Program-made: the position numbers and the translations under genes | Source: an uncultured Ktedonobacteraceae bacterium | GTDB lineage: Bacteria > Chloroflexota > Ktedonobacteria > Ktedonobacterales > Ktedonobacteraceae | Direction of reading: 5' to 3' | NCBI GenBank assembly: GCA_964250365.1 | Contig: CAXUGH010000006.1 | Location: 2,157-49,899 of the forward strand | Length of the DNA stretch: 47,743 nt | Part shown: positions 31,209 through 39,487 of the stretch, one piece after another | How the letters are laid out: each line of letters opens with the position of its first letter | Numbering within the stretch: position 1 is the stretch's first letter | The notes under the pieces: generated by a model | What the model saw: only the letters and a program-made list of their open reading frames with translations | Databases searched by the model: none | What the model was told of the DNA's origin: nothing

Positions 31209-31805
31209 ATGAGCAATAATTTCTACATCCATCCAACGGCGGAGGTATCCACACAAGCACATATAGGGTCAGGCACACGTATCTGGCGACAGGTACATGT
31301 ACGAGATGGAGCGCAGATTGGAGAAGAATGCAATATCGGTGGTGGTGTCTACATTGACGTACATGTGCAGATTGGTTCGCGCGTCAAGATTCAGAATAAC
31401 ACCTCGGTTTTTGAGGGTGTGACAATTGAGGACGGTGTGTTCGTTGGACCTCATGTCTGCTTTACCAATGACCTGCTACCACGAGCAATTACACCTGACG
31501 GTAGGCTCAAGGCTGCAACAGATTGGCAGGTTACGCCAACACTCGTTCAGTATGGTGCCTCCATTGGAGCTGGCTCAGTTATTGTTTGCGGTGTGACAAT
31601 AGGCACATTCGCCCTAGTTGGAGCAGGCTCTGTGGTAACAAAGGATGTACCACCGCACGCACTTATGTTCGGAAATCCTGCGCGATTGCATAGCTATGTC
31701 TGTCGCTGTGCGCGTCGATTGTCCAACATCCATGAAGAAGGAAAGGCACTTGTTGGAGAGTGCGAGACATGCAGTAAGCACTATTCGCTCAAGGAGAATT
31801 ATTGA
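31209..31805 (+). CDS. Hexapeptide-repeat (left-handed beta-helix) N-acetyltransferase, WbpD-like
   Basis: [20 protein letters not shown]...[22 protein letters not shown]...[34 protein letters not shown] aligns, from memory, with P. aeruginosa WbpD. Has a C-terminal Cys pair region (CRC...CETC). Confidence 0.9.
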
Positions 31806-31865: not shown

Positions 31866-31930
31866 TTGCACAGATCAGCCCTTCCAACATGCTACTTTTA
31901 TACTAAAGCATAAAAAGCTGATCTGTGCAA
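31866..31930. terminator. Hairpin between convergent genes (bidirectional terminator candidate)
   Basis: TTGCACAGATCAGC (31866-31879) pairs perfectly with GCTGATCTGTGCAA (31917-31930). The 37-nt loop contains a nested ATGCT/AGCAT stem. Confidence 0.5.
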
Positions 31931-32010: not shown

Positions 32011-32877
32011 CTAATGGACTTGCCGCTCTTTGATAGAGCGAATGTAGCGATTTAACTTACGAATAGTTTCCTCTACATTCGGTTGGATAAAATCGAACTC
32101 TGGTAGGTTAGGCAAATGATCCAGAGGAAGGGAACGAATGGTAACGCTCACGTTGCGCCCATTCGCATCGAGGCAAAAACTTCTTGTACGATACATATGT
32201 TCCACATCATCAATCTCTACAATTTCATTCTCATCTACTTTTTGCAAGGCACCAACACTATCATAAAAGTATGTGCTGATACTTTGACCGCTATCTCTAT
32301 GGTTTACCGTATTGATTGTTAACCGTATCATAATGATGCGATGTTCGAGTGGCAAGACATAGGTATAAATGTTGACGCTGTAACGCATCATACCATCCTT
32401 GCCCAGTTTCCAGAGGATATCTTGCTTGAGATGTTGCTTGGCATCTTTCGCTCCTGGAACAGCGTATCCTCGTACAACCAGAAGACGTTCACGCTCCCTA
32501 GGAGTAAGGTCTTCCAAATCTTCTTCCTGCAACGCCTTCTCTAATCCATTCTTCGCCTTTCTATCGATCCAAATATCGTATTGGAGGTCGCTTGGAGTCT
32601 GCATCCCAAAGCGTACCATAAGCCATAGAGTACTGCCAACGATAAAACAGCACAATGCGGCGAGTAAAAACCATTTCATATTTCCTAGCCAGATGAAACC
32701 TAGTACGACGCTAGCGAAGCACAAAACAAAAGCAATACGTAGTGCATAAATTTTGCTCGTATCGTCTTTTGTAAAGTAGGCTCGCATCTGATCGTCAGTA
32801 AATTCGCGATATACTGCACTAGAAACTTTGGAAATCACAAAGGGAATTGATCCCTGAACACTTCGTCGAAATTGCAT
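32011..32877 (-). CDS. Hypothetical 2-TM membrane protein with a ~200-aa cytoplasmic alpha/beta C-domain
   Basis: TM hairpin IYALRIAFVLCFASVVLGFIWLG / WFLLAALCCFIVGSTLWLMVRFG. Start at ATG 32877 (AAGGAG 7 nt upstream). No family recognised. Confidence 0.65.
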   Translation of the reverse strand: MQFRRSVQGSIPFVISKVSSAVYREFTDDQMRAYFTKDDTSKIYALRIAFVLCFASVVLGFIWLGNMKWFLLAALCCFIVGSTLWLMVRFGMQTPSDLQYDIWIDRKAKNGLEKALQEEDLEDLTPRERERLLVVRGYAVPGAKDAKQHLKQDILWKLGKDGMMRYSVNIYTYVLPLEHRIIMIRLTINTVNHRDSGQSISTYFYDSVGALQKVDENEIVEIDDVEHMYRTRSFCLDANGRNVSVTIRSLPLDHLPNLPEFDFIQPNVEETIRKLNRYIRSIKERQVH

Positions 32878-32905
32878 AAGAAAACTCCTTCCATTGGTTG
32901 CGAAA

Positions 32906-33766
32906 CTAATTCCACCAACCTTGTGCATCCTGCATCAAGCGCGGTTGACAAGAATAGAGAATGTCTATGTACTCCTGGTCTTGTGATGTGAAAGAGATAG
33001 AACGCAACTGTTCTATGAGTTCGTCAGCATCGTCATAAAGGTGTGAATGCCCATTCCAACCGTAGTCCTGTTTGATGACAGCGAGTACGTAAAGGTAAGC
33101 CCAGGAAACGTGCAATGTATTAGCAGACTGCAATAGTTGGGTAGTTCGACAAAATGTTTGATAGTTTGCATGACGAGGGCGTTTGCCTCGAAAAAGTGCT
33201 AATGCCAGCAATGCACGTACCTGTGCAGACGCTGCAAGATGTTGTTTCTCTGTCAACAAATGAAGGGACTTTTCAAGGTGAGAAATTGCTAGGTCGTATT
33301 CACCTCTTTGGAGGGCATCCCGTCCATCTTGCAGCCCTTGCATCCCCACTGTTACTTTATCTTCCTGCACATGTGTAGTATTGACGATGGTGCCGAGGTT
33401 GACACCATTGACAGAACCATAAGCATTTCCATGATGTTGAACGCTAACAAGGCTACTTGCACCTGTATTAGTCTGTTGTAGGTCTGTTAGCAATCGTTGT
33501 GCCATTTCGTAGGCAGTTGTGTCTTGAGCAAGTCCAGCCTTACTGAGAGTGTCGCGTAAAGGCTTTTCCCATGTATCCTGGTCTTGTTGATATTCGTCCA
33601 GCACAAGCAACGATTTGCGTGCATCAGCTTTGCTTGTCAAAACCTTACGAATATGTTTCACCAACGCCTCCAACTCGTCTTTTATTGTATCGCTGATAGC
33701 ACCTTGACTACCTGTTGCCAAAGCACCACCGATTGCCGTGAGGATGAGATTGATGACATCTGTCAA
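32906..33766 (-). CDS. Hypothetical protein: Gly-rich N-terminal helix, TPR-like C-terminal half
   Basis: TTG start at 33766 with AGGAG 7 nt upstream. N-terminus LILTAIGGALATGSQGAIS. TPR-like GRDALQRGEYDLAISHLEKSLHLL...ALLALALF. Confidence 0.6.
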   Translation of the reverse strand: MTDVINLILTAIGGALATGSQGAISDTIKDELEALVKHIRKVLTSKADARKSLLVLDEYQQDQDTWEKPLRDTLSKAGLAQDTTAYEMAQRLLTDLQQTNTGASSLVSVQHHGNAYGSVNGVNLGTIVNTTHVQEDKVTVGMQGLQDGRDALQRGEYDLAISHLEKSLHLLTEKQHLAASAQVRALLALALFRGKRPRHANYQTFCRTTQLLQSANTLHVSWAYLYVLAVIKQDYGWNGHSHLYDDADELIEQLRSISFTSQDQEYIDILYSCQPRLMQDAQGWWN

Positions 33767-33827
33767 AATTTTTCTCCTTTAGTGAAGCCAATGAACAAGA
33801 TGGTAAAAAAAAGAGTACTGCCAAACG

Positions 33828-34367
33828 CTAGGCAATACGAATATATTCGTACTCAACGCCCCCACTACTAGCACTCTGCTCCCGACGTAGGATATAACCT
33901 TCACTCCAAAGCTGTTTGAGTTTGTTACTTGCATTAGGAACTCTCAGACCAAGGACACTAGCAGCCTCACTTGTATATGCAACTGGAACCAAGAGGACAT
34001 AATATAACATGTCTCGTAGTCCAGCACTTGGTTCTGGCCCTATAATAGAGTACTTCCCATTTGACTCACAAACAGTGATAGGTTGCTCCTGTCTGCGAGC
34101 TGCTGCATCCCAGTTCTCTAGCAAATCGGGGTCTTCGATATGACTAATACAAAATCCTTTCTTTCCACGGTAGCTTTTGGCTAGCTCAATAACAGATGTT
34201 CGTGGAAATGTGATATCTGTCTGCTCAATGCCATCTAACGAGATGGAAAGAATTTGTTCGTTAGGATGATCCTCTATCAACGCTTGGAGTTTATCACGAA
34301 CTTGACGGCCTAAAGTGTGCCCCCAACCGTCGGAGCGTCCCATTATGTCTCGCAAGCGTATCTGCAT
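33828..34367 (-). CDS. STAS-like (DUF4325-type) domain protein with a C-terminal winged-helix
   Basis: GHTLGRQVRDKLQALIEDHPNEQILSISLDGIEQTDITFPRTSVIELAKSY fits the DUF4325/STAS-like pattern (from memory). C-terminus SEAASVLGLRVPNASNKLKQLWSEGYILRRE is wHTH-like. ATG 34367 has AAGGAG 7 nt upstream. Confidence 0.55.
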   Translation of the reverse strand: MQIRLRDIMGRSDGWGHTLGRQVRDKLQALIEDHPNEQILSISLDGIEQTDITFPRTSVIELAKSYRGKKGFCISHIEDPDLLENWDAAARRQEQPITVCESNGKYSIIGPEPSAGLRDMLYYVLLVPVAYTSEAASVLGLRVPNASNKLKQLWSEGYILRREQSASSGGVEYEYIRIA

Positions 34368-34401
34368 CTCTATCTCCTTCACTAAATCTAGTGTAGCAGA
34401 T

Positions 34402-35319
34402 TTAGCGAGAAGTGTCAAGAGGAAATGAGAAACAGATATGCGTTCCTGCTAAGGGAACCAAATGTTCTTGGTAAGACGCACGAAGGGAACGATTATCTGA
34501 AGAAGTAAGGTGTACGCTACATGTTTCAAGCCGAATGGTAACGCTTCCAGTAAGCTTTAAGGCTTTCCTGCCACACTCTTCTAATCCTTGCCCTGCACCT
34601 CCATGTTGCCATGAAAGCGTTCCCTGAAAAAGTTGACGTAGCGTCTCGGTATCATTTAGCGATGTTGAACTAAGAAGCTTAGGGCGTAGCGTTGTGAGTA
34701 AACCCACCCCGCTATCTGATACGACTACGAGTACTCGCCCTCCTTGCTGATAGACTTGTAGCGCGGCAGAGCCATTCAATACAGTCTGGCTATGTCCATA
34801 GATATTATTGACGAGTTCGGCAAAAGTTGTATAAGCTGTATGACCGAAGTGTTCTGCGTCAGGACGTTTTCCCATAGCTATTTCGAGTGCTTGTGCAAGC
34901 TGTTTAGGGATATCGTCATCTTGCTGATTGTGTAGGGGATGGATGCTTCTAAACTCGACTAGACCTCGGTTTTGTCCTTGATAGCGTTTTACTTCCGACC
35001 CGTCTGGACGATGTGGGTGAACTCGAACTTGCTCGGCAAGTAGAGAGAAAAAATTAGCACGATTCAGGTAATTCATCGCCTTGTGCGATTGTCCTTCAAA
35101 GAGCAAGGTCACTTGCTGCCCTCTCGCCACACTTTGATTTGCAAATGAAAGGAGCCGTACTGCAGCATCAACCATAATTTTGCATGAAGGTGGAAAGCGA
35201 AAAAGAAAACTCTCTGAATTTTCCAGAGATGTTGGGTTTGTCTTATATGTCTGTCTGAATGCTTGTTCAAATTCGTTTCCTGTCGCCCATCCATTGGAAA
35301 GTAACACAACACGTTCCAT
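34402..35319 (-). CDS. GHKL-superfamily ATPase (RsbW/SpoIIAB-like HATPase_c) with an unknown N-terminal domain
   Basis: N-box ELVNNIYGHS, G1 VVVSDSGVGL, G2 GGAGQGLEE. ATG 35319 has GGAGGA 6 nt upstream, overlapping the upstream stop. Confidence 0.65.
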   Translation of the reverse strand: MERVVLLSNGWATGNEFEQAFRQTYKTNPTSLENSESFLFRFPPSCKIMVDAAVRLLSFANQSVARGQQVTLLFEGQSHKAMNYLNRANFFSLLAEQVRVHPHRPDGSEVKRYQGQNRGLVEFRSIHPLHNQQDDDIPKQLAQALEIAMGKRPDAEHFGHTAYTTFAELVNNIYGHSQTVLNGSAALQVYQQGGRVLVVVSDSGVGLLTTLRPKLLSSTSLNDTETLRQLFQGTLSWQHGGAGQGLEECGRKALKLTGSVTIRLETCSVHLTSSDNRSLRASYQEHLVPLAGTHICFSFPLDTSR

Positions 35320-35329
35320 AACGATCCTC

Positions 35330-35884
35330 CTAGATAGCATGTCCTCGATACATCTGCCACCATCGGTACAGATAATGGCTCTTGTCTGGCATATATTTAG
35401 CTCTCCTTTGCATATTGCTCAATCCGTCGCTAATAGCATCAAATGACGAGTTAGAAATATCAGCCCAATATTTGAAGAGATCGAGAGTAGTCATAATGTG
35501 AAGTTGCGACAGGTGTTGCTGAAAGAGCAAAATAGCGTCTTGGTCATCAATTACAAGTGTCCAGTTCCGATTGGATGCTATAGACGCTGCAAATGCTTCA
35601 CTATTCCCCAACTTTCCATTACTCACATAGGCTAAATTGATGACGGTTTCTTGCTCACGTTCACTTTCGACATCTACAAAAGAGAATAGTTTTTTATCAA
35701 GCGGTATTTGCAAATCAGTCAATGTAATATTGCCATTGTTGGTACGCACTTCTTTGTCGCGCACAATTGCTTTTTGTCCTGGCAGAACTTTCAGCACCGG
35801 TTCCATCACATTAGAAGCATGCAAGTTGACGATAGACCAAGCATCTATGATCGTATGGTCTCGCAAACGTGGGATATCACTCAT
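35330..35884 (-). CDS. PIN-like domain protein (tentative)
   Basis: TIIDAWSIVNL (first acidic strand) and LGNSEAFAASIASNRNWTLVIDDQDA...IMTTLDLF resemble the GEAEAIALA...LLIDD..AR...GTLGIL layout of COG2405/DUF3368-type PIN domains. The ATG overlaps the upstream stop (ATGAGTGA), with AGGAGGA 8 nt upstream. Confidence 0.45.
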   Translation of the reverse strand: MSDIPRLRDHTIIDAWSIVNLHASNVMEPVLKVLPGQKAIVRDKEVRTNNGNITLTDLQIPLDKKLFSFVDVESEREQETVINLAYVSNGKLGNSEAFAASIASNRNWTLVIDDQDAILLFQQHLSQLHIMTTLDLFKYWADISNSSFDAISDGLSNMQRRAKYMPDKSHYLYRWWQMYRGHAI

Positions 35885-37115
35885 GCCCTAAATCCTCCTG
35901 ACTATTGGGAGGTTCCTGTGGCTCCTGTGGGATTTGTTTTATCACGACATCAGTTTGAGCCGTGGTAGTACCATCTTGCTGAAATAGCTCAAGCATCTTT
36001 CTGGCCTCCCACCGATCAACCTCAAGAAACTGCGAGAATTGTGCCTCGCTAATCAAACCACTTTCTAATGCTTCAAGAGCAAGATACTGATAGCGAAGGG
36101 GATATTTTTGTTCTTGCACCACGATAGGAGCAAGTCCTAACTGTTCCTGTGCCTCACGTACTTTGAAGCCACTTGCTTTCAACTTCTCTGCGAAGCCTGT
36201 TGGTAGTAATCTCAAATCCTCTAGGCGTAGCAGCATTGCTTCAACTGAGACTCCATAGTAGTGAGCAAGGATTAGTAGGTCTCCCAACTTGACGCTCTCT
36301 TTCATTTTCCGAATGTCATTAAAGCGTTTGACAACACTGTTTGTTGGCATGAGAAAGAATGTCGCAAAGTCATCGGCAAGGCGTTCGCTTTCTGGCTTAC
36401 GCTGATAGGTATCATCACTGAAGACCGTTGGCTTCTGGCGATACGTCAGGAAATGCCCGTAGTCATGGGCTAGGGACCAACGACGCCGCTCTTCTGGATG
36501 ATTGCTATTAACGGCAATGCACCCTCCTACCTGTTCATCATACAAATAGATGGCAGAAAACTTCTTAGGCAATGGGTAATAAAAGACTCGTAAACCTACA
36601 TCCTGTTCCAGAATATCACGTAGTAATGGAATTTGTCCATTGTTCAATCCCAAACGAGTACGCTCCTCTATCGCAATATTTTCGGCTGCCTCACTTGTCG
36701 AGAGATTTCCCATTTCGTATACAGTAGGATAGCGACGGTTGAGCGGCGATTGCGTGATATGTTCGAGTTCATAATAATTGCGTGCTAAAAATTTAAGTTG
36801 CTCAACTGATGGCTCCACTAACTTGTTATCTTCTTCTGTTCGTAGCGAGGGGCCGCGAAACTGCGGTTGAGAGAGTGCGATATCAGGATGTGGACGCACT
36901 AAGTCTGTGATAGGCATATCGTATGCTTGTGCAAGTTTGATAAGTTCGCCCGCTTTGATACGACGCTCTCCCTTCTCTATAGAGGTCATCGTGGTACGAG
37001 CAACATCAATAAGCTTGGCGGCCTGTTCTTGCGTAAAGCCTTTTCTGATACGTGCCTGTTGCAGTTCACGCCCAAGCGTTTTCATGTCTATGGTATTCAG
37101 CACGCTGTAGTCCAT
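35877..37115 (-). CDS. Fused XRE-family HTH / ImmA-IrrE (COG2856) metallopeptidase-like protein
   Basis: N-terminus LGRELQQARIRKGFTQEQAAKLIDVARTTMTSIEKGERR (XRE HTH). Central WSLAHDYGHFL sits at the position of the HExxH motif. C-terminus LAHYYGVSVEAMLLRLEDL is typical of COG2856. Confidence 0.85.
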   Translation of the reverse strand: MDYSVLNTIDMKTLGRELQQARIRKGFTQEQAAKLIDVARTTMTSIEKGERRIKAGELIKLAQAYDMPITDLVRPHPDIALSQPQFRGPSLRTEEDNKLVEPSVEQLKFLARNYYELEHITQSPLNRRYPTVYEMGNLSTSEAAENIAIEERTRLGLNNGQIPLLRDILEQDVGLRVFYYPLPKKFSAIYLYDEQVGGCIAVNSNHPEERRRWSLAHDYGHFLTYRQKPTVFSDDTYQRKPESERLADDFATFFLMPTNSVVKRFNDIRKMKESVKLGDLLILAHYYGVSVEAMLLRLEDLRLLPTGFAEKLKASGFKVREAQEQLGLAPIVVQEQKYPLRYQYLALEALESGLISEAQFSQFLEVDRWEARKMLELFQQDGTTTAQTDVVIKQIPQEPQEPPNSQEDLGHE

Positions 37116-37178
37116 AATGCACCCTTTCTGTCGTTCTTTTCTTCATCTTTTCAAGGGAGCGTTTGTATTGTGTCCCCC

Positions 37179-38585
37179 TTACTCAAGAAACGCTCGTCCT
37201 AGTGGCTCCCTTACTTGTTCCCATTCATTGACATACTCTCGGTAGAGTTGTAGAAGCCGCGTTTGTAGAACCGTCTGTGATACTTCCTGTTCTCTTTGCA
37301 CACCCATATTTTCTACGATATCTGATAACGTGAGATAGTGTTGTGACATACGTTGCCAACTATCGGAAGTAGCCAGCAGCGTTTTCATTGTATTCACCTG
37401 TGCTAGCATTGCACGATAATAGAGTGCATCCTTCGGATTACGTTTCCTCTTGGAATTATCAGTAATTTGATAAGATGTTTTATCAGGTACTCCAGAAACA
37501 ACAATAGCCTGACGCCTTAGAAGGCACGAAGAGCAGTAACCACATTGCTGTAGGTAAGCTCGATGTCTGCTATCACAACTTACTGTAAAGGACGCTAGTT
37601 TTGTAAAACCTTGCGTCAATAGTTCTTTACACATCTGCGCCTTTGTCCAAGAGAGAAAAGGGTTTCGGAAAAGGAATGGTTGTCCGAGAATAGTTGACAA
37701 CAAATCGCTCATGTATACTAAAGATAACGGATGAACCGACCGTGAATGATCGAGTGCCACTTCCGATTTGCGAAACGGAAGATTAATAGCACCGACACCA
37801 TTCTCATGGATATGGAGCGTGTTCTTCTCTATATGATGAGCGCATACAGCTCCCAGTAATAGAAATACGAAGCCTCGTGAACGCATACTAGAACTGGTGC
37901 GAATGTCGTCGTTCACGCCCCTTAGAGCAAAGGGAAGTTGTAAAAGCTGTATACGTCCAGGAAACAATCCAACTAACATTTCTGAGGTCTCTCGTTGCGT
38001 TGCATTCATATAGTTATTGCTACCAGTACCGAAGAGAATGTAGTTACTCGCATTATCCTGACACAGTTGTTGATAGGCACCTGCGAAAGCATCCAGACCT
38101 CCACTCCACAGAGCCACTCGTGTCGCCTCGTTTGTTTGTGATAAAAAAGGCAAAGGATGTTGTCTCTGTGCAGTACGTGGGTGCTTCGTATATGGGAGAA
38201 ATTCAAACGTCCAAAAGTCTCCAGTAAACCAATATAAGACCTCCCTTAACTTCTCAGGAATAGATGTGTCATTTAATTTTCGATATGTCTGCAATGGAAG
38301 ACGAATCCGAATACGGCGAGGCATCTCTTTTTCTGTCCGTACCATTTTTGAGTAGTTTGTAGCGAGACGATCCACGAGATGAACAGCGATAGCGATATCG
38401 ACCAAATCCGAATGCTGAGGTGCGAGAGCTTGATAATTTAATAATGGTATCTGGCTGTCGTCTACCATGATTTGTACATCGATCACTCGATTAGCTCGAT
38501 AGTCAAATATCCTCAAACCACTCTCTTTATATTGTTCGCCAATATGCTCAAAGGTAAAATCGTAATCATATTCTTCTAGCATCAT
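37179..38585 (-). CDS. QueC-like PP-loop ATPase with N- and C-terminal extensions
   Basis: VALWSGGLDAFAG (PP-loop, cf. SGGxDS), RSRGFVFLLLGAVCAH, NPFLSWTKAQMCKEL and SCDS...CGYCSSCLLRR (Zn-Cys cluster) occur in QueC order. It is 468 aa versus about 230 aa for QueC. AGGAGGA RBS overlaps the upstream stop. Confidence 0.8.
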   Translation of the reverse strand: MMLEEYDYDFTFEHIGEQYKESGLRIFDYRANRVIDVQIMVDDSQIPLLNYQALAPQHSDLVDIAIAVHLVDRLATNYSKMVRTEKEMPRRIRIRLPLQTYRKLNDTSIPEKLREVLYWFTGDFWTFEFLPYTKHPRTAQRQHPLPFLSQTNEATRVALWSGGLDAFAGAYQQLCQDNASNYILFGTGSNNYMNATQRETSEMLVGLFPGRIQLLQLPFALRGVNDDIRTSSSMRSRGFVFLLLGAVCAHHIEKNTLHIHENGVGAINLPFRKSEVALDHSRSVHPLSLVYMSDLLSTILGQPFLFRNPFLSWTKAQMCKELLTQGFTKLASFTVSCDSRHRAYLQQCGYCSSCLLRRQAIVVSGVPDKTSYQITDNSKRKRNPKDALYYRAMLAQVNTMKTLLATSDSWQRMSQHYLTLSDIVENMGVQREQEVSQTVLQTRLLQLYREYVNEWEQVREPLGRAFLE

Positions 38586-38593
38586 AGTTCCTC

Positions 38594-39223
38594 CTATGCA
38601 CCCAGCGTTGGAATGTCCGAATCAATGGTGTAGTCCATCTTTACACGCTTTCTTCTTGGCTGTCGCGGAAGATACACTGTCTCTTTTTTGTAAATGGCCT
38701 TGACGTACTCTTGTATGCGTGCTTTGACAAATGGACGCATCATTTCTAGCTGTTCGCCAACAAATGCATCACTCGCACCGTTATAGTGAGTAGGAGTGAG
38801 AGGCACACATTCTACGAATTTAGCTTCACATATATTCGTCATATATCCCGTGAGTAGTTCTATAAAACAGTTCGTAGGCTGAACACCATTACGAATCGCC
38901 CAAAATTCTTCCTTACAAGCTCTCGCGGCTAACTCTCGTAACGGCTTATTAGCATACACTCTTGTCTTTGTATCTATGAGAGCTTCTTCTTGCTGCCAAT
39001 CGATCTTCTCAAAAAATTTTCTATCCAGAATGCTTTGTAGTTGTGTTGCGACCTCTTTCAGCATATGTATCAGCGTATCTTTGCCCCGTTTCATATCTTT
39101 CCACACATCCTCTGTTACCTTGTTAGCAAGCTCCTCGCCAGTCAATTTACCTTCACACAACTGCTTGTATGATGTATGGTATCGTCGTTCAAGATGTTCA
39201 TGTACTATGTCGCCGTCTGGCAT
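38594..39223 (-). CDS. Hypothetical helical protein, translationally coupled to the QueC-like gene
   Basis: 209 aa from ATG 39223 (AGGA 7 nt upstream). Charged, predicted helical, with a basic C-terminal patch RQPRRKRVK. No family recognised. Confidence 0.65.
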   Translation of the reverse strand: MPDGDIVHEHLERRYHTSYKQLCEGKLTGEELANKVTEDVWKDMKRGKDTLIHMLKEVATQLQSILDRKFFEKIDWQQEEALIDTKTRVYANKPLRELAARACKEEFWAIRNGVQPTNCFIELLTGYMTNICEAKFVECVPLTPTHYNGASDAFVGEQLEMMRPFVKARIQEYVKAIYKKETVYLPRQPRRKRVKMDYTIDSDIPTLGA

Positions 39224-39303
39224 ACGCATTTCCTTTTTTTCACTACCTAAAAAGAAAGAACATAAAAACAAGACACACTACAAACACAATGGCTTTAGCA
39301 AAG

Positions 39304-39332
39304 AGTATATGTCAGATAAAGAAAAATGTCAA
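39304..39332 (-). promoter_or_regulatory. Candidate sigma70-type promoter of the 8-gene island
   Basis: Minus strand: TTGACA (39332-39327), 17-nt spacer, TATACT (39309-39304), about 80 nt upstream of ATG 39223. Confidence 0.4.
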
Positions 39333-39364
39333 GTATTTTATGGATAATTTTTTGCTAAAGTGTC

Positions 39365-39387
39365 AAATTTATATGACATATAAATTT
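39365..39387. promoter_or_regulatory. 23-bp perfect palindrome (operator candidate)
   Basis: AAATTTATATG-A-CATATAAATTT has 11-bp arms around one central base. It lies in the divergent region between the island and the MFS gene and overlaps a second TTGACA hexamer. Confidence 0.35.
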
Positions 39388-39487
39388 ATCTTAGGTGTTT
39401 TGCTTGCTCCCTGTCCCTTTGACCATTGCACCGCGCCTCTCACTTGCGGTAAGGTATGAACACGTACCTACCTAGTCAGGAGTAGCA

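Follow-up and report, generated by a model that had tools for sequence, protein, structure and literature searches.

We analysed a block of eight co-directional genes, g1 to g8, in a stretch of DNA of 47,743 nucleotides (nt) from an uncultured Ktedonobacteraceae bacterium (assembly GCA_964250365.1, contig CAXUGH010000006.1); the whole stretch is here called the window, and the genes are numbered in transcription order on its minus strand. The block very probably consists of two independent four-gene units arranged in tandem within a variable locus. In the explanation that we favour, and to which we assign a probability of roughly 0.7, unit A (g1-g4) would be a defence-type cassette with a QatC-like enzyme, and unit B (g5-g8) an operon under the control of a CapK/CapS pair.

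The partition is seen directly in the gene neighbourhoods. One genome per species was scanned with an alignment of the g2 family, and the six-frame open reading frames (ORFs) of the resulting 80 loci, with g2 at 36-64% identity, were searched with all eight window proteins. The loci belong to Cyanobacteria (the majority), Chloroflexota, Armatimonadota, Planctomycetota and Entotheonellaceae. Homologues of g1 and g3 were each detected in 79 loci and of g4 in 75, in constant gene order, with the g1 homologue immediately upstream of that of g2 in 79 of the 80; four of the five loci lacking g4 end at a contig edge. Homologues of g5-g8 were found in none of the 80 distant loci, and a recurrent fifth gene beside g1-g4, sought in their flanks, was not found either. 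The flanks are variable, with restriction or other defence genes close to the cassette in several loci. The eight genes occur together only in the closest relatives, five contigs (L001/L002 and L090/L091) at 84-85% identity that apparently represent one locus. The only locus with sufficient room that has homologues of g1-g2 and lacks g3-g4, on a Chloroflexia metagenome-assembled genome (L007, CAVZQK010000069.1), could be either a minimal form, QatBC-like, or one with another output module.

The same four genes as in unit A are borne by the conjugative plasmid pQ15_94_2 of Agrobacterium tumefaciens (L179, NZ_CP049219.1, 264828-268567), where PGAP names them hypothetical protein, 7-cyano-7-deazaguanine synthase, XRE regulator and hypothetical protein. 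The joint travel of g1-g4 across phyla and this plasmid copy, with no recurrent fifth gene, point to a self-contained, mobile cassette. Viral contigs scanned with the g2 alignment gave nothing, and hence no sign of a phage-borne cassette. The plasmid copy adjoins a restriction endonuclease gene, and upstream of it lie TTGACATGTCAG and a CTGACAT half-site. In the close relatives L001 (16816-21404) and L090, the eight genes are followed by a gene for a 1065-residue SNF2-family helicase and then by one for an Eco57I/MmeI-type methyltransferase protein of more than 1380 residues; polysaccharide genes do not follow the eight in these contigs, and the MFS gene on the opposite side is common with the window. 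With downstream genes that differ and an MFS side in common, the locus has the character of a variable defence hotspot.

Within unit A, g2 is a QatC-family PP-loop enzyme, having a QueC-like core with N- and C-terminal extensions of the QatC type. It matched the QatC model of NCBIfam (NF041925) at 3.8e-49 with 167.7 bits, which is below the equivalog cut-off of 280 bits, and that of PADLOC at 1.9e-44; the g2-family profile found QatC in the PDB at 5e-35, and Pfam QueC matched the C-terminal part of the core. An AlphaFold2 model (predicted local distance difference test, pLDDT, 86.9; predicted template-modelling score, pTM, 0.90) could be aligned with the QatC chain 9y01_B over 424 columns (E 1.1e-17, TM-scores 0.62/0.68), as against 208-229 columns only with QueC and Cap9, which indicates that g2 carries the QatC-specific extensions. 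The signature of QatC has been given as the PP-loop, D63, D..R, DxWxxxF, RxRxxxF, ExG, HP, PxxxxTK and a Cys4 zinc site (PMC13329287). The residues invariant in the g2 family, namely the PP-loop SGGxD, D60, D72, W125, F127/F129, R235, R237, E261-N262-G263, H285-P286, P309 and T314-K315, align with this motif set; the Thr278/Thr280 of QatC are replaced by S281/S283, and the zinc site is kept (C337/C348/C351/C354) with a spacer of 10 residues against 19 in QatC. The database label of g2 homologues, 7-cyano-7-deazaguanine synthase, was rejected as a statement of function because the QatC-specific residues and extensions are present.

The first gene of the unit, g1, encodes a protein predicted to be all-helical that occupies the position of QatB. 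Its family begins with M-[P/A]-D-G-D in 65 of 80 members (MPDGD in 49, MADGD in 16), M1, D3 and D5 being invariant, and no other protein of the cassette has an invariant N-terminus. Most homologues also share a C-terminal tail that is basic and then acidic, LR(L/R)PRR...K.IDLDEDLL (38594-38680 in the window), of which the clade of the window has a divergent version, PRQPRRKRVKMDYTIDSDIPTLGA; judged from its sequence, the tail possibly resembles a short linear motif for a partner, which may be g2, g3 or g4. An AlphaFold2 model of g1 computed from four close sequences reached a pLDDT of 53, too poor for fold comparison, and its Foldseek matches are meaningless. By analogy with QatC-QatB and Cap9-CdnD, the processed N-terminus of g1 (Pro2/Ala2) would be the target of g2, and we see an even chance that g1 is its substrate.

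The product of g3 combines an XRE-type helix-turn-helix (HTH) domain, an M78 (ImmA/IrrE-like) domain and a C-terminal domain (Pfam Peptidase_M78 3.7e-19, HTH_3 2.9e-12). Over residues 12-310 it matched the PADLOC models of RmrA, of the RosmerTA system, at 1.3e-23 to 1.6e-07; it also matched the PADLOC models capH/capP and PDC-M69A/B and the spr1629 antitoxin model of NCBIfam (8.6e-16). Both metal-binding His residues are conserved in its relatives, and the protein is presumed to be the repressor or antitoxin of the cassette. In the g4 family D14, E96 (in DDGE) and D113 (in ATDD) are invariant or nearly so, with further conservation at E45, E77 and T133, and g4 is presumed to be a nuclease effector or toxin. 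The PADLOC models PDC-S70 and PDC-M69C were matched by four and one of its 38 family members, respectively, and the RmrT model by neither g4 nor any of the 38. A comparison of the g4 profile with the PDB returned only a phosphoribosyltransferase, judged spurious.

A conserved palindrome, TGACA-N1-2-TGTCA, lies 63-73 nt before the start of g1 in 47 of 77 loci, where it overlaps the TTGACA -35 element. With three occurrences in 1.28 Mb of background, the enrichment exceeds 1000-fold, and we infer that it is the operator of the g3 HTH domain. The perfect palindrome that lies further upstream in the window occurs there once and bears no relation to the TGACA operator; L003 has a comparable palindrome, AAATTTAATG-a-CATTTAATTT. 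The sole exact match of the window to the operator pattern, a TGACA-N2-TGTCA at the start codon of g7 (33754-33765; TGACAGATGTCA; TTGACAGATGTCA), might suggest cross-regulation, a reading that we discarded: the closest relatives have ATGACGGACGCTA and do not conserve the site, which probably arose by chance through codon choice.

Turning to unit B, CapK has been described as a STAS-GHKL kinase activated by single-stranded DNA (ssDNA), and CapS as a STAS-winged-HTH repressor that is released by phosphorylation (Chambers et al., EMBO J 2026, PMC13373217). By homology, g5 and g6 are new members of this described CapK/CapS group and form an HTH-less subfamily. The g5 protein (STAS and GHKL domains) aligned in BLASTP with CapK of Enterobacter roggenkampii and Vibrio gigantis, taken from capKS loci on plasmids, at 30-31% identity (E 4e-38 / 9e-36); a CapK profile found nothing in the PDB, as no CapK structure is deposited. 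Its W11 aligns with W68 of CapK, a ssDNA contact, and its N172 with N218, the kinase Asn, both being invariant or at least 90% conserved in the family. The protein lacks the N-terminal HTH domain of published CapK and starts at about residue 58-61 of the latter. Deletion of this domain from CapK had no effect in reporter assays (PMC13373217). The g5 family comprises 81 matches, mostly from Chloroflexota and soil metagenomes.

The partner protein g6 (STAS and winged-HTH domains) matched two CapS structures over their full length in phmmer searches, PDB 9Z72 of V. cholerae at 9.5e-34 (residues 14-193 to 4-182) and 9Z71 of E. roggenkampii at 3.1e-31, their identities as CapS being from PMC13373217. 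At the position of the phospho-acceptor (S54 of E. roggenkampii, in STAS helix 2) the window has Thr53, and at least 90% of 61 relatives have Ser. Threonine can be phosphorylated. An acceptor that is Ser or Thr has been reported for the related VapS (PMC13373217).

In a survey of g5 neighbourhoods, covering seven contigs and 80 metagenome loci, a g6 homologue directly followed g5 in 78 of the 80 loci with room. The only loci with room in which no downstream g6 homologue was detected were L120/L121 (WNGL01000617.1). Elsewhere the pair is followed by other cargos, namely CBASS cyclases with E1/E2, JAB and patatin proteins, CBASS of the HORMA/TRIP13 type, ThiF/E2/JAB (Bil-like) operons, pPIWI-RE and PNP proteins. 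In L087 (9684-16957) a complete pPIWI-RE system (restriction endonuclease, DinG-like Z and pPIWI) comes immediately after the capKS homologues; this class is not among the cargos of PMC13373217. The capKS homologues of L088 and L089 are immediately preceded by type I restriction-modification genes, an arrangement found in 88 of 443 loci in PMC13373217.

The promoter at the capK-capS junction corresponds to 'promoter #1' of PMC13373217, and its sequence TTGACA-N17-TACACT is kept at the junction in about 25 related loci. An inverted repeat of at least 7 nt over the -10 element, comparable to that of the window, was detected in one related locus alone, that of the close relative L090; many of the remaining loci have a short CTGC-N10-GCAG symmetry, noted by eye. 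A perfect 16-bp palindrome, TACGAATATATTCGTA (33836-33851), falls within the final codons of g6, immediately ahead of the terminator-like hairpin, and may represent another CapS site, equivalent to 'promoter #2', or else be functionless.

In the window the cargo of CapKS is the pair g7-g8, with g7 as the first gene and g8 as the second. In the g7 protein, a conserved N-terminal helix rich in Gly and Ala precedes a C-terminal half that is TPR-like, and g8 has a hairpin of two transmembrane segments at about residues 43-92 (by hydropathy) followed by a conserved C-terminal domain of about 190 residues; neither matched anything in Pfam, NCBIfam, PADLOC, PHROGs or the PDB. The two genes stand together behind capKS in at least five other lineages; loci of this kind are L084, L092, L097/L104 and L086, as well as the close relatives L001/L090. 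The L086 homologue of g7 keeps the TPR-like half (29% identity, E 1e-26), and a PNP_UDP_1 domain replaces the Gly/Ala-rich helix. The g8 family is rare (90 representative clusters at E<=1e-3 among 1.84 billion), and the N-termini of relatives sharing its C-terminal domain are PNP_UDP_1 (P0217), TIR (P0254) or multi-transmembrane (P0212) modules. Such head-swapping is typical of immune effectors, and PNP_UDP_1 and TIR are hallmark immune effector domains. That g7 and g8 form an antiviral effector pair is a tentative reading, for which we put the odds somewhat short of even.

As regards the layout of the block (Table 1), all eight ORFs of the listing were present where the first-pass annotation of this DNA had placed them, between 39223 and 32011. 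Start codons were refined from homologue lengths and alignments for g1 (39223), g5 (35319), g6 (34367) and g8 (32877); the intergenic gaps from g1 to g8 are 8, 63, -8, 10, 34, 61 and 28 nt, and GGAG/AGGA-type ribosome-binding sites precede all eight refined starts, in agreement with the tight spacing (-8 to 63 nt) and strong sites reported before. The consensus-like promoter noted upstream was also recovered. Of the shared terminator hairpin proposed downstream, the strong hairpin was confirmed (-37.8 / -35.5 kcal/mol, z -5.0 / -7.4 against shuffled sequence), and a clear U-tract is lacking. Two features that split the block internally had escaped that annotation, the promoter at the g5/g6 junction and the U8 hairpin after g6.

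Table 1. Coordinates of the two units, their genes and associated sequence features in the window (aa, amino acids)
Feature	Position	Strand	Remarks
Unit A (g1-g4)	39332-35330	-	own promoter region
Unit B (g5-g8)	35319-32011	-	CapK/CapS and cargo
g1	38594-39223	-	209 aa, starts MPDGD
g2	37179-38585	-	468 aa
g3	35877-37115	-	412 aa
g4	35330-35884	-	184 aa; start overlaps g3 stop by 8 nt
g5	34402-35319	-	305 aa
g6	33828-34367	-	179 aa
g7	32906-33766	-	286 aa, TTG start
g8	32011-32877	-	288 aa
Sigma-70-like promoter of g1-g4	39304-39332	-	TTGACA-17-TATACT, 11/12 consensus match
TGACA half-sites at both hexamers of the g1 promoter	39304-39332		cTTGACAttt ... tCTGACATATACT
Candidate target region of g3	39300-39390		g1 promoter region; a further candidate target is TTGACAATGTCAG
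Perfect 11+11 nt palindrome	39365-39387	.	AAATTTATATG-n-CATATAAATTT, ~30 nt upstream of the g1 promoter
capK-capS junction promoter	34379-34418	-	match 34418-34390; TTGACA-17-TACACT, TG-extended
Inverted repeat straddling the junction -10	within 34379-34418	-	TCGCTAAATCT-N8-AGATTTAGTGA; presumed CapS operator
Terminator-like hairpin, 8 bp + U8	33805-33838	-	match 33838-33815; overlaps g6 stop; -12.3 kcal/mol, z -3.1
Hairpin between convergent g8 and hexapeptide-transferase gene	31866-31930	.	candidate bidirectional terminator

The flanks agree with the placement described earlier, between a surface-polysaccharide locus and core-like genes. On one side are genes for a DegT aminotransferase, a hexapeptide transferase, a sugar transferase and UDP-sugar enzymes, and on the other those for an MFS transporter and a transglutaminase-like protein. 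The polysaccharide locus is a co-directional run of about 22 genes on the minus strand (5295-30788) together with 31209-31805; the genes checked in it encode a UDP-GlcNAc 2-epimerase, a UDP-glucose dehydrogenase, a GFO/IDH/MocA oxidoreductase, a Bac_transf sugar transferase and a DegT aminotransferase, and a convergent gene of the region encodes a hexapeptide acyltransferase.

The family models searched were those of Pfam, NCBIfam 20 and PADLOC-DB 2.0, together with PHROGs and the PDB for g7 and g8. The first pass through Pfam, NCBIfam and PADLOC gave no matches for g1, g4, g6, g7 and g8, and a weak HATPase_c match for g5. Most domain labels of the first-pass annotation withstood closer analysis: QueC-like for g2 (from the QatC models, motifs and structural model), XRE-HTH/ImmA-like for g3, GHKL and STAS plus winged-HTH for g5 and g6, and two transmembrane segments for g8. 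Its PIN-like label for g4 is probable from the acidic residues, with Pfam matches that are weak and few, and its phrase that a PIN protein replaces TatD is a fair description of g1-g4. The statement that the island matches no described system held in part. No PADLOC or NCBIfam system model fits g1-g4 as a unit or g7-g8, whereas g5-g6 are CapK/CapS (PMC13373217) and single proteins matched the models of QatC (g2, under the QatC threshold) and of RmrA of RosmerTA (g3).

Several observations weigh against the favoured explanation or parts of it. No QatB match was obtained for g1, either with PADLOC (none in 47 members) or in the PDB, and an hhalign comparison with nine plasmid QatB sequences gave a probability of 19%, which is not conclusive either way; g1 also has neither the Gly2 that is essential in QatB nor its long disordered tail, and N-terminal modification may thus be absent or of different chemistry. 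In about 80 g3 relatives, the position of the M78 Glu reads HGxxH in about 40, HExxH in about 19 and HDxxH in about 14 (HDYGH in the window), and this loss of the catalytic Glu in most relatives makes a proteolytic switch of the CapP/ImmA type unlikely for the family. The PIN-like nature of g4 is probable from motifs and weak matches to Pfam PIN (2 of 38 members, best 9.7e-4) and PIN_12 (1 of 38). The window clade lacks the perfect operator palindrome and has TGACA half-sites at -35 and -10 instead. In unit B, a terminator-like hairpin lies between capS and g7, with no good promoter match before g7, and operons whose antiviral role was never demonstrated (Bub, yegP) are likewise found behind CapKS (PMC13373217). 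The window contains no tRNA, the block borders show no integrase or transposase, as had been noted earlier, and the GC content of the block (0.43-0.46) is the same as that of its neighbours. Lastly, defence activity, toxicity and all protein-protein contacts in both units are deduced from sequence.

The annotation from which we started had read all eight genes as one integrated Qat-like system, with the GHKL protein for QatA, the PIN-like protein for QatD, and g6-g8 as added sensor and effector parts. The tight co-directional packing with 10 nt between g4 and g5, the one strong upstream promoter and the presence of all eight genes in L001/L002 and L090/L091 speak for such a system; yet this joint occurrence is confined to 84-85% identity, g1-g4 occur in 75 distant loci that lack g5-g8, g5-g6 are found with other cargos and no g1-g4 in dozens of loci, and the internal promoter and terminator split the block. 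The g5 protein is moreover a CapK homologue travelling with g6 and not with g2, rather than a KAP-type NTPase, and does not replace QatA. A single system is thus highly improbable: the expected co-travel of all eight genes broke down in distant lineages, where g1-g4 and g5-g6 travel separately, and the neighbourhoods support the fallback that the annotation had offered, in which two or three small systems are stacked. We regard as just as far-fetched the proposal that g2 is a metabolic 7-deazaguanine (preQ0/CDG) enzyme in a regulated nucleoside-modification or salvage operon. The database name of its homologues and the Pfam QueC match would fit this; but the canonical QueC catalytic signatures are missing where the QatC set and extensions are present, QatC fails to complement a queC deletion (PMC13329287), queD, queE and queF are not adjacent in the window, no extra gene recurs around the cassette in the 80 loci, the partner genes encode an HTH-M78 regulator and a PIN-like protein, and the variable flanks have restriction or other defence genes nearby in several loci.

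A closer competitor divides unit A itself into two linked autonomous pairs, a minimal QatBC-like g1-g2 and a toxin-antitoxin pair g3-g4 resembling RosmerTA/PDC-M69. QatBC by itself suffices against some phages (PMC13279940), independent systems are known that combine HTH-M78 antitoxins with varied toxins, the RmrA, PDC-M69 and PDC-S70 models match g3 and g4, and L007 has g1-g2 only, with room for more. We nevertheless think this division unlikely, as the four genes keep their order in 75 of 76 loci with room, in Cyanobacteria, Chloroflexota, Armatimonadota and an alphaproteobacterial plasmid with g2 at 36-64% identity, and linkage over such evolutionary depth makes chance co-travel of two independent systems unlikely; in addition, the single conserved operator lies upstream of g1, with none noted before g3, the frames of g3 and g4 overlap and the gap between g2 and g3 is short. 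For unit B, g7-g8 might serve DNA damage or general stress, as the Bub and yegP cargos would suggest, or merely lie next to capKS. CapKS answer DNA damage in general (PMC13373217), the hairpin parts capS from g7, and defence models match neither cargo protein; against this stand the presence of g7-g8 after capKS in five or more separate lineages, the PNP_UDP_1 and TIR modules swapped in by relatives, and the established defence systems that are most of the other cargos at that position, and a stress pair or simple adjacency appears unlikely. The division into a QatC-like cassette and a CapK/CapS-controlled operon remains our preferred reading, and that unit A is a defence system is the better bet.

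Among known systems, the nearest to unit A is the anti-phage system QatABCD, reportedly introduced by Gao and colleagues in 2020. Both have the QatC fold with two extensions and the QatC-specific residues, a small helical protein with a conserved extreme N-terminus immediately upstream, as in qatBC, and a nuclease-type gene in the operon, a presumed one in the cassette. The QatBC structures (PMC13279940, PMC13376578, PMC13639016) revealed that QatB has an essential MGTS motif (Gly2) and that its disordered tail, 30-90 residues long, reaches into the active site of QatC. In contrast, g1 starts with M-[P/A]-D-G-D, has no long tail and no detectable similarity to QatB, and g2 stays under the NCBIfam cut-off with Ser for Thr278/Thr280 and the shorter zinc spacer. 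A KAP NTPase (QatA) or TatD (QatD) is absent from the eight genes and does not recur in the flanks of the 80 loci, the HTH-M78 and PIN-like proteins being present instead. The canonical qatABCD makes up 98% of qat clusters (PMC13434339), and the survey of the QueC family gave KAP NTPase and TatD as the sole QatC-cluster neighbours, each at about 34% (PMC13329287). The g1-g4 cassette therefore lacks three defining features of qatABCD, namely QatA, QatD and a QatB-type partner.

The second half of the cassette resembles RosmerTA, the spr1629 HTH-COG2856 proteins and PDC-M69, with RmrA models matched by g3 over nearly the full length of the models, a small putative toxin gene next to it in an overlapping frame, and a few g4 relatives that match PDC-M69C and PDC-S70. 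It differs from them in that g3-g4 always stand behind a QatC-like pair, in the lack of an RmrT match and possibly in the M78 Glu, which is mostly lost in the g3 family. With CapH/CapP, ImmR/ImmA and DdrO/IrrE it shares an HTH repressor and M78 modules by a conflict operon, and g3 matches capH and capP, but the modules are fused in g3 and, with the catalytic Glu mostly absent, de-repression by cleavage is unlikely. The deazaguanylation of CdnD by Cap9 in type IV CBASS, where a QueC-family enzyme acts on a protein that inserts its processed N-terminus into the active site, served as the template for g2 and g1; Cap9, however, is a minimal QueC of about 185 residues with an ancestral active site, as opposed to the extended QatC type of g2, and no CD-NTase is found here. 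Unit B shares with CapK/CapS (PMC13373217) the capK-capS-cargo order, the junction promoter with an inverted repeat over -10 and, in relatives, CBASS and Bil-like cargos. It departs from them in the HTH-less g5, the Thr acceptor of g6, a presumed operator that differs from the TTAA half-sites, a cargo (g7-g8) outside the classes of that paper, and a distribution in Chloroflexota and soil metagenomes and not in Proteobacteria. In the literature searched, PADLOC-DB 2.0 and NCBIfam 20, there was no description of g1-g4 and no link of QatC/QueC with M78, COG2856 or RosmerTA, and the cassette is apparently undescribed.

Taken together with these parallels, a mechanism may be sketched for either unit. 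In unit A, g2 would bind g1 and modify its processed N-terminus (Pro2 or Ala2), and the HTH domain of g3 would bind the TGACA-type operator and repress the operon. Like antitoxins of the RosmerTA/spr1629 type, g3 would also hold the PIN-like g4 inactive until infection is sensed, whereupon g4 would provide a growth-arresting nuclease output, in the place that TatD (QatD) has in qatABCD. In unit B, ssDNA would activate g5, which would phosphorylate g6 at Thr53; CapS would then leave its operator, allowing more expression of capS and of the cargo. The latter would act as a two-protein effector pair of the abortive-infection type, with g8 acting on or damaging the membrane.

The QatC reaction was not reconstituted in the three structure papers of 2026, all of which dealt with QatB carrying Gly2 (PMC13279940, PMC13376578, PMC13639016). 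A QatC branch whose partner begins with Pro/Ala-Asp-Gly-Asp and has no long tail would offer an independent test of what QatC attaches, and to what, and the plasmid copy in A. tumefaciens is a culturable and genetically tractable source for it. The cassette suggests that a core of the QatBC type can be wired to outputs besides QatA and QatD. As annotation pipelines label its genes as a queuosine enzyme, an XRE regulator and hypotheticals, at least about 80 genomes carry a candidate defence cassette that goes unrecognised. It is possible, though doubtful, that g1-g4 are a widespread, undescribed branch of QatC immunity in Cyanobacteria, Chloroflexota and some Proteobacteria, in which the enzyme targets the N-terminal Pro or Ala of a non-QatB partner and a catalytically degenerate HTH-M78 'pseudo-protease' relays the signal to a PIN nuclease, and that g7-g8 are at the same time a new CapK/CapS-controlled effector system with swappable two-transmembrane, PNP or TIR heads. 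For CapK/CapS, the known range is extended by the HTH-less subfamily of Chloroflexota and soil metagenomes and by pPIWI-RE and g7-g8 as new cargos, and the domain swapping among their relatives marks g7-g8 as a candidate new effector family.

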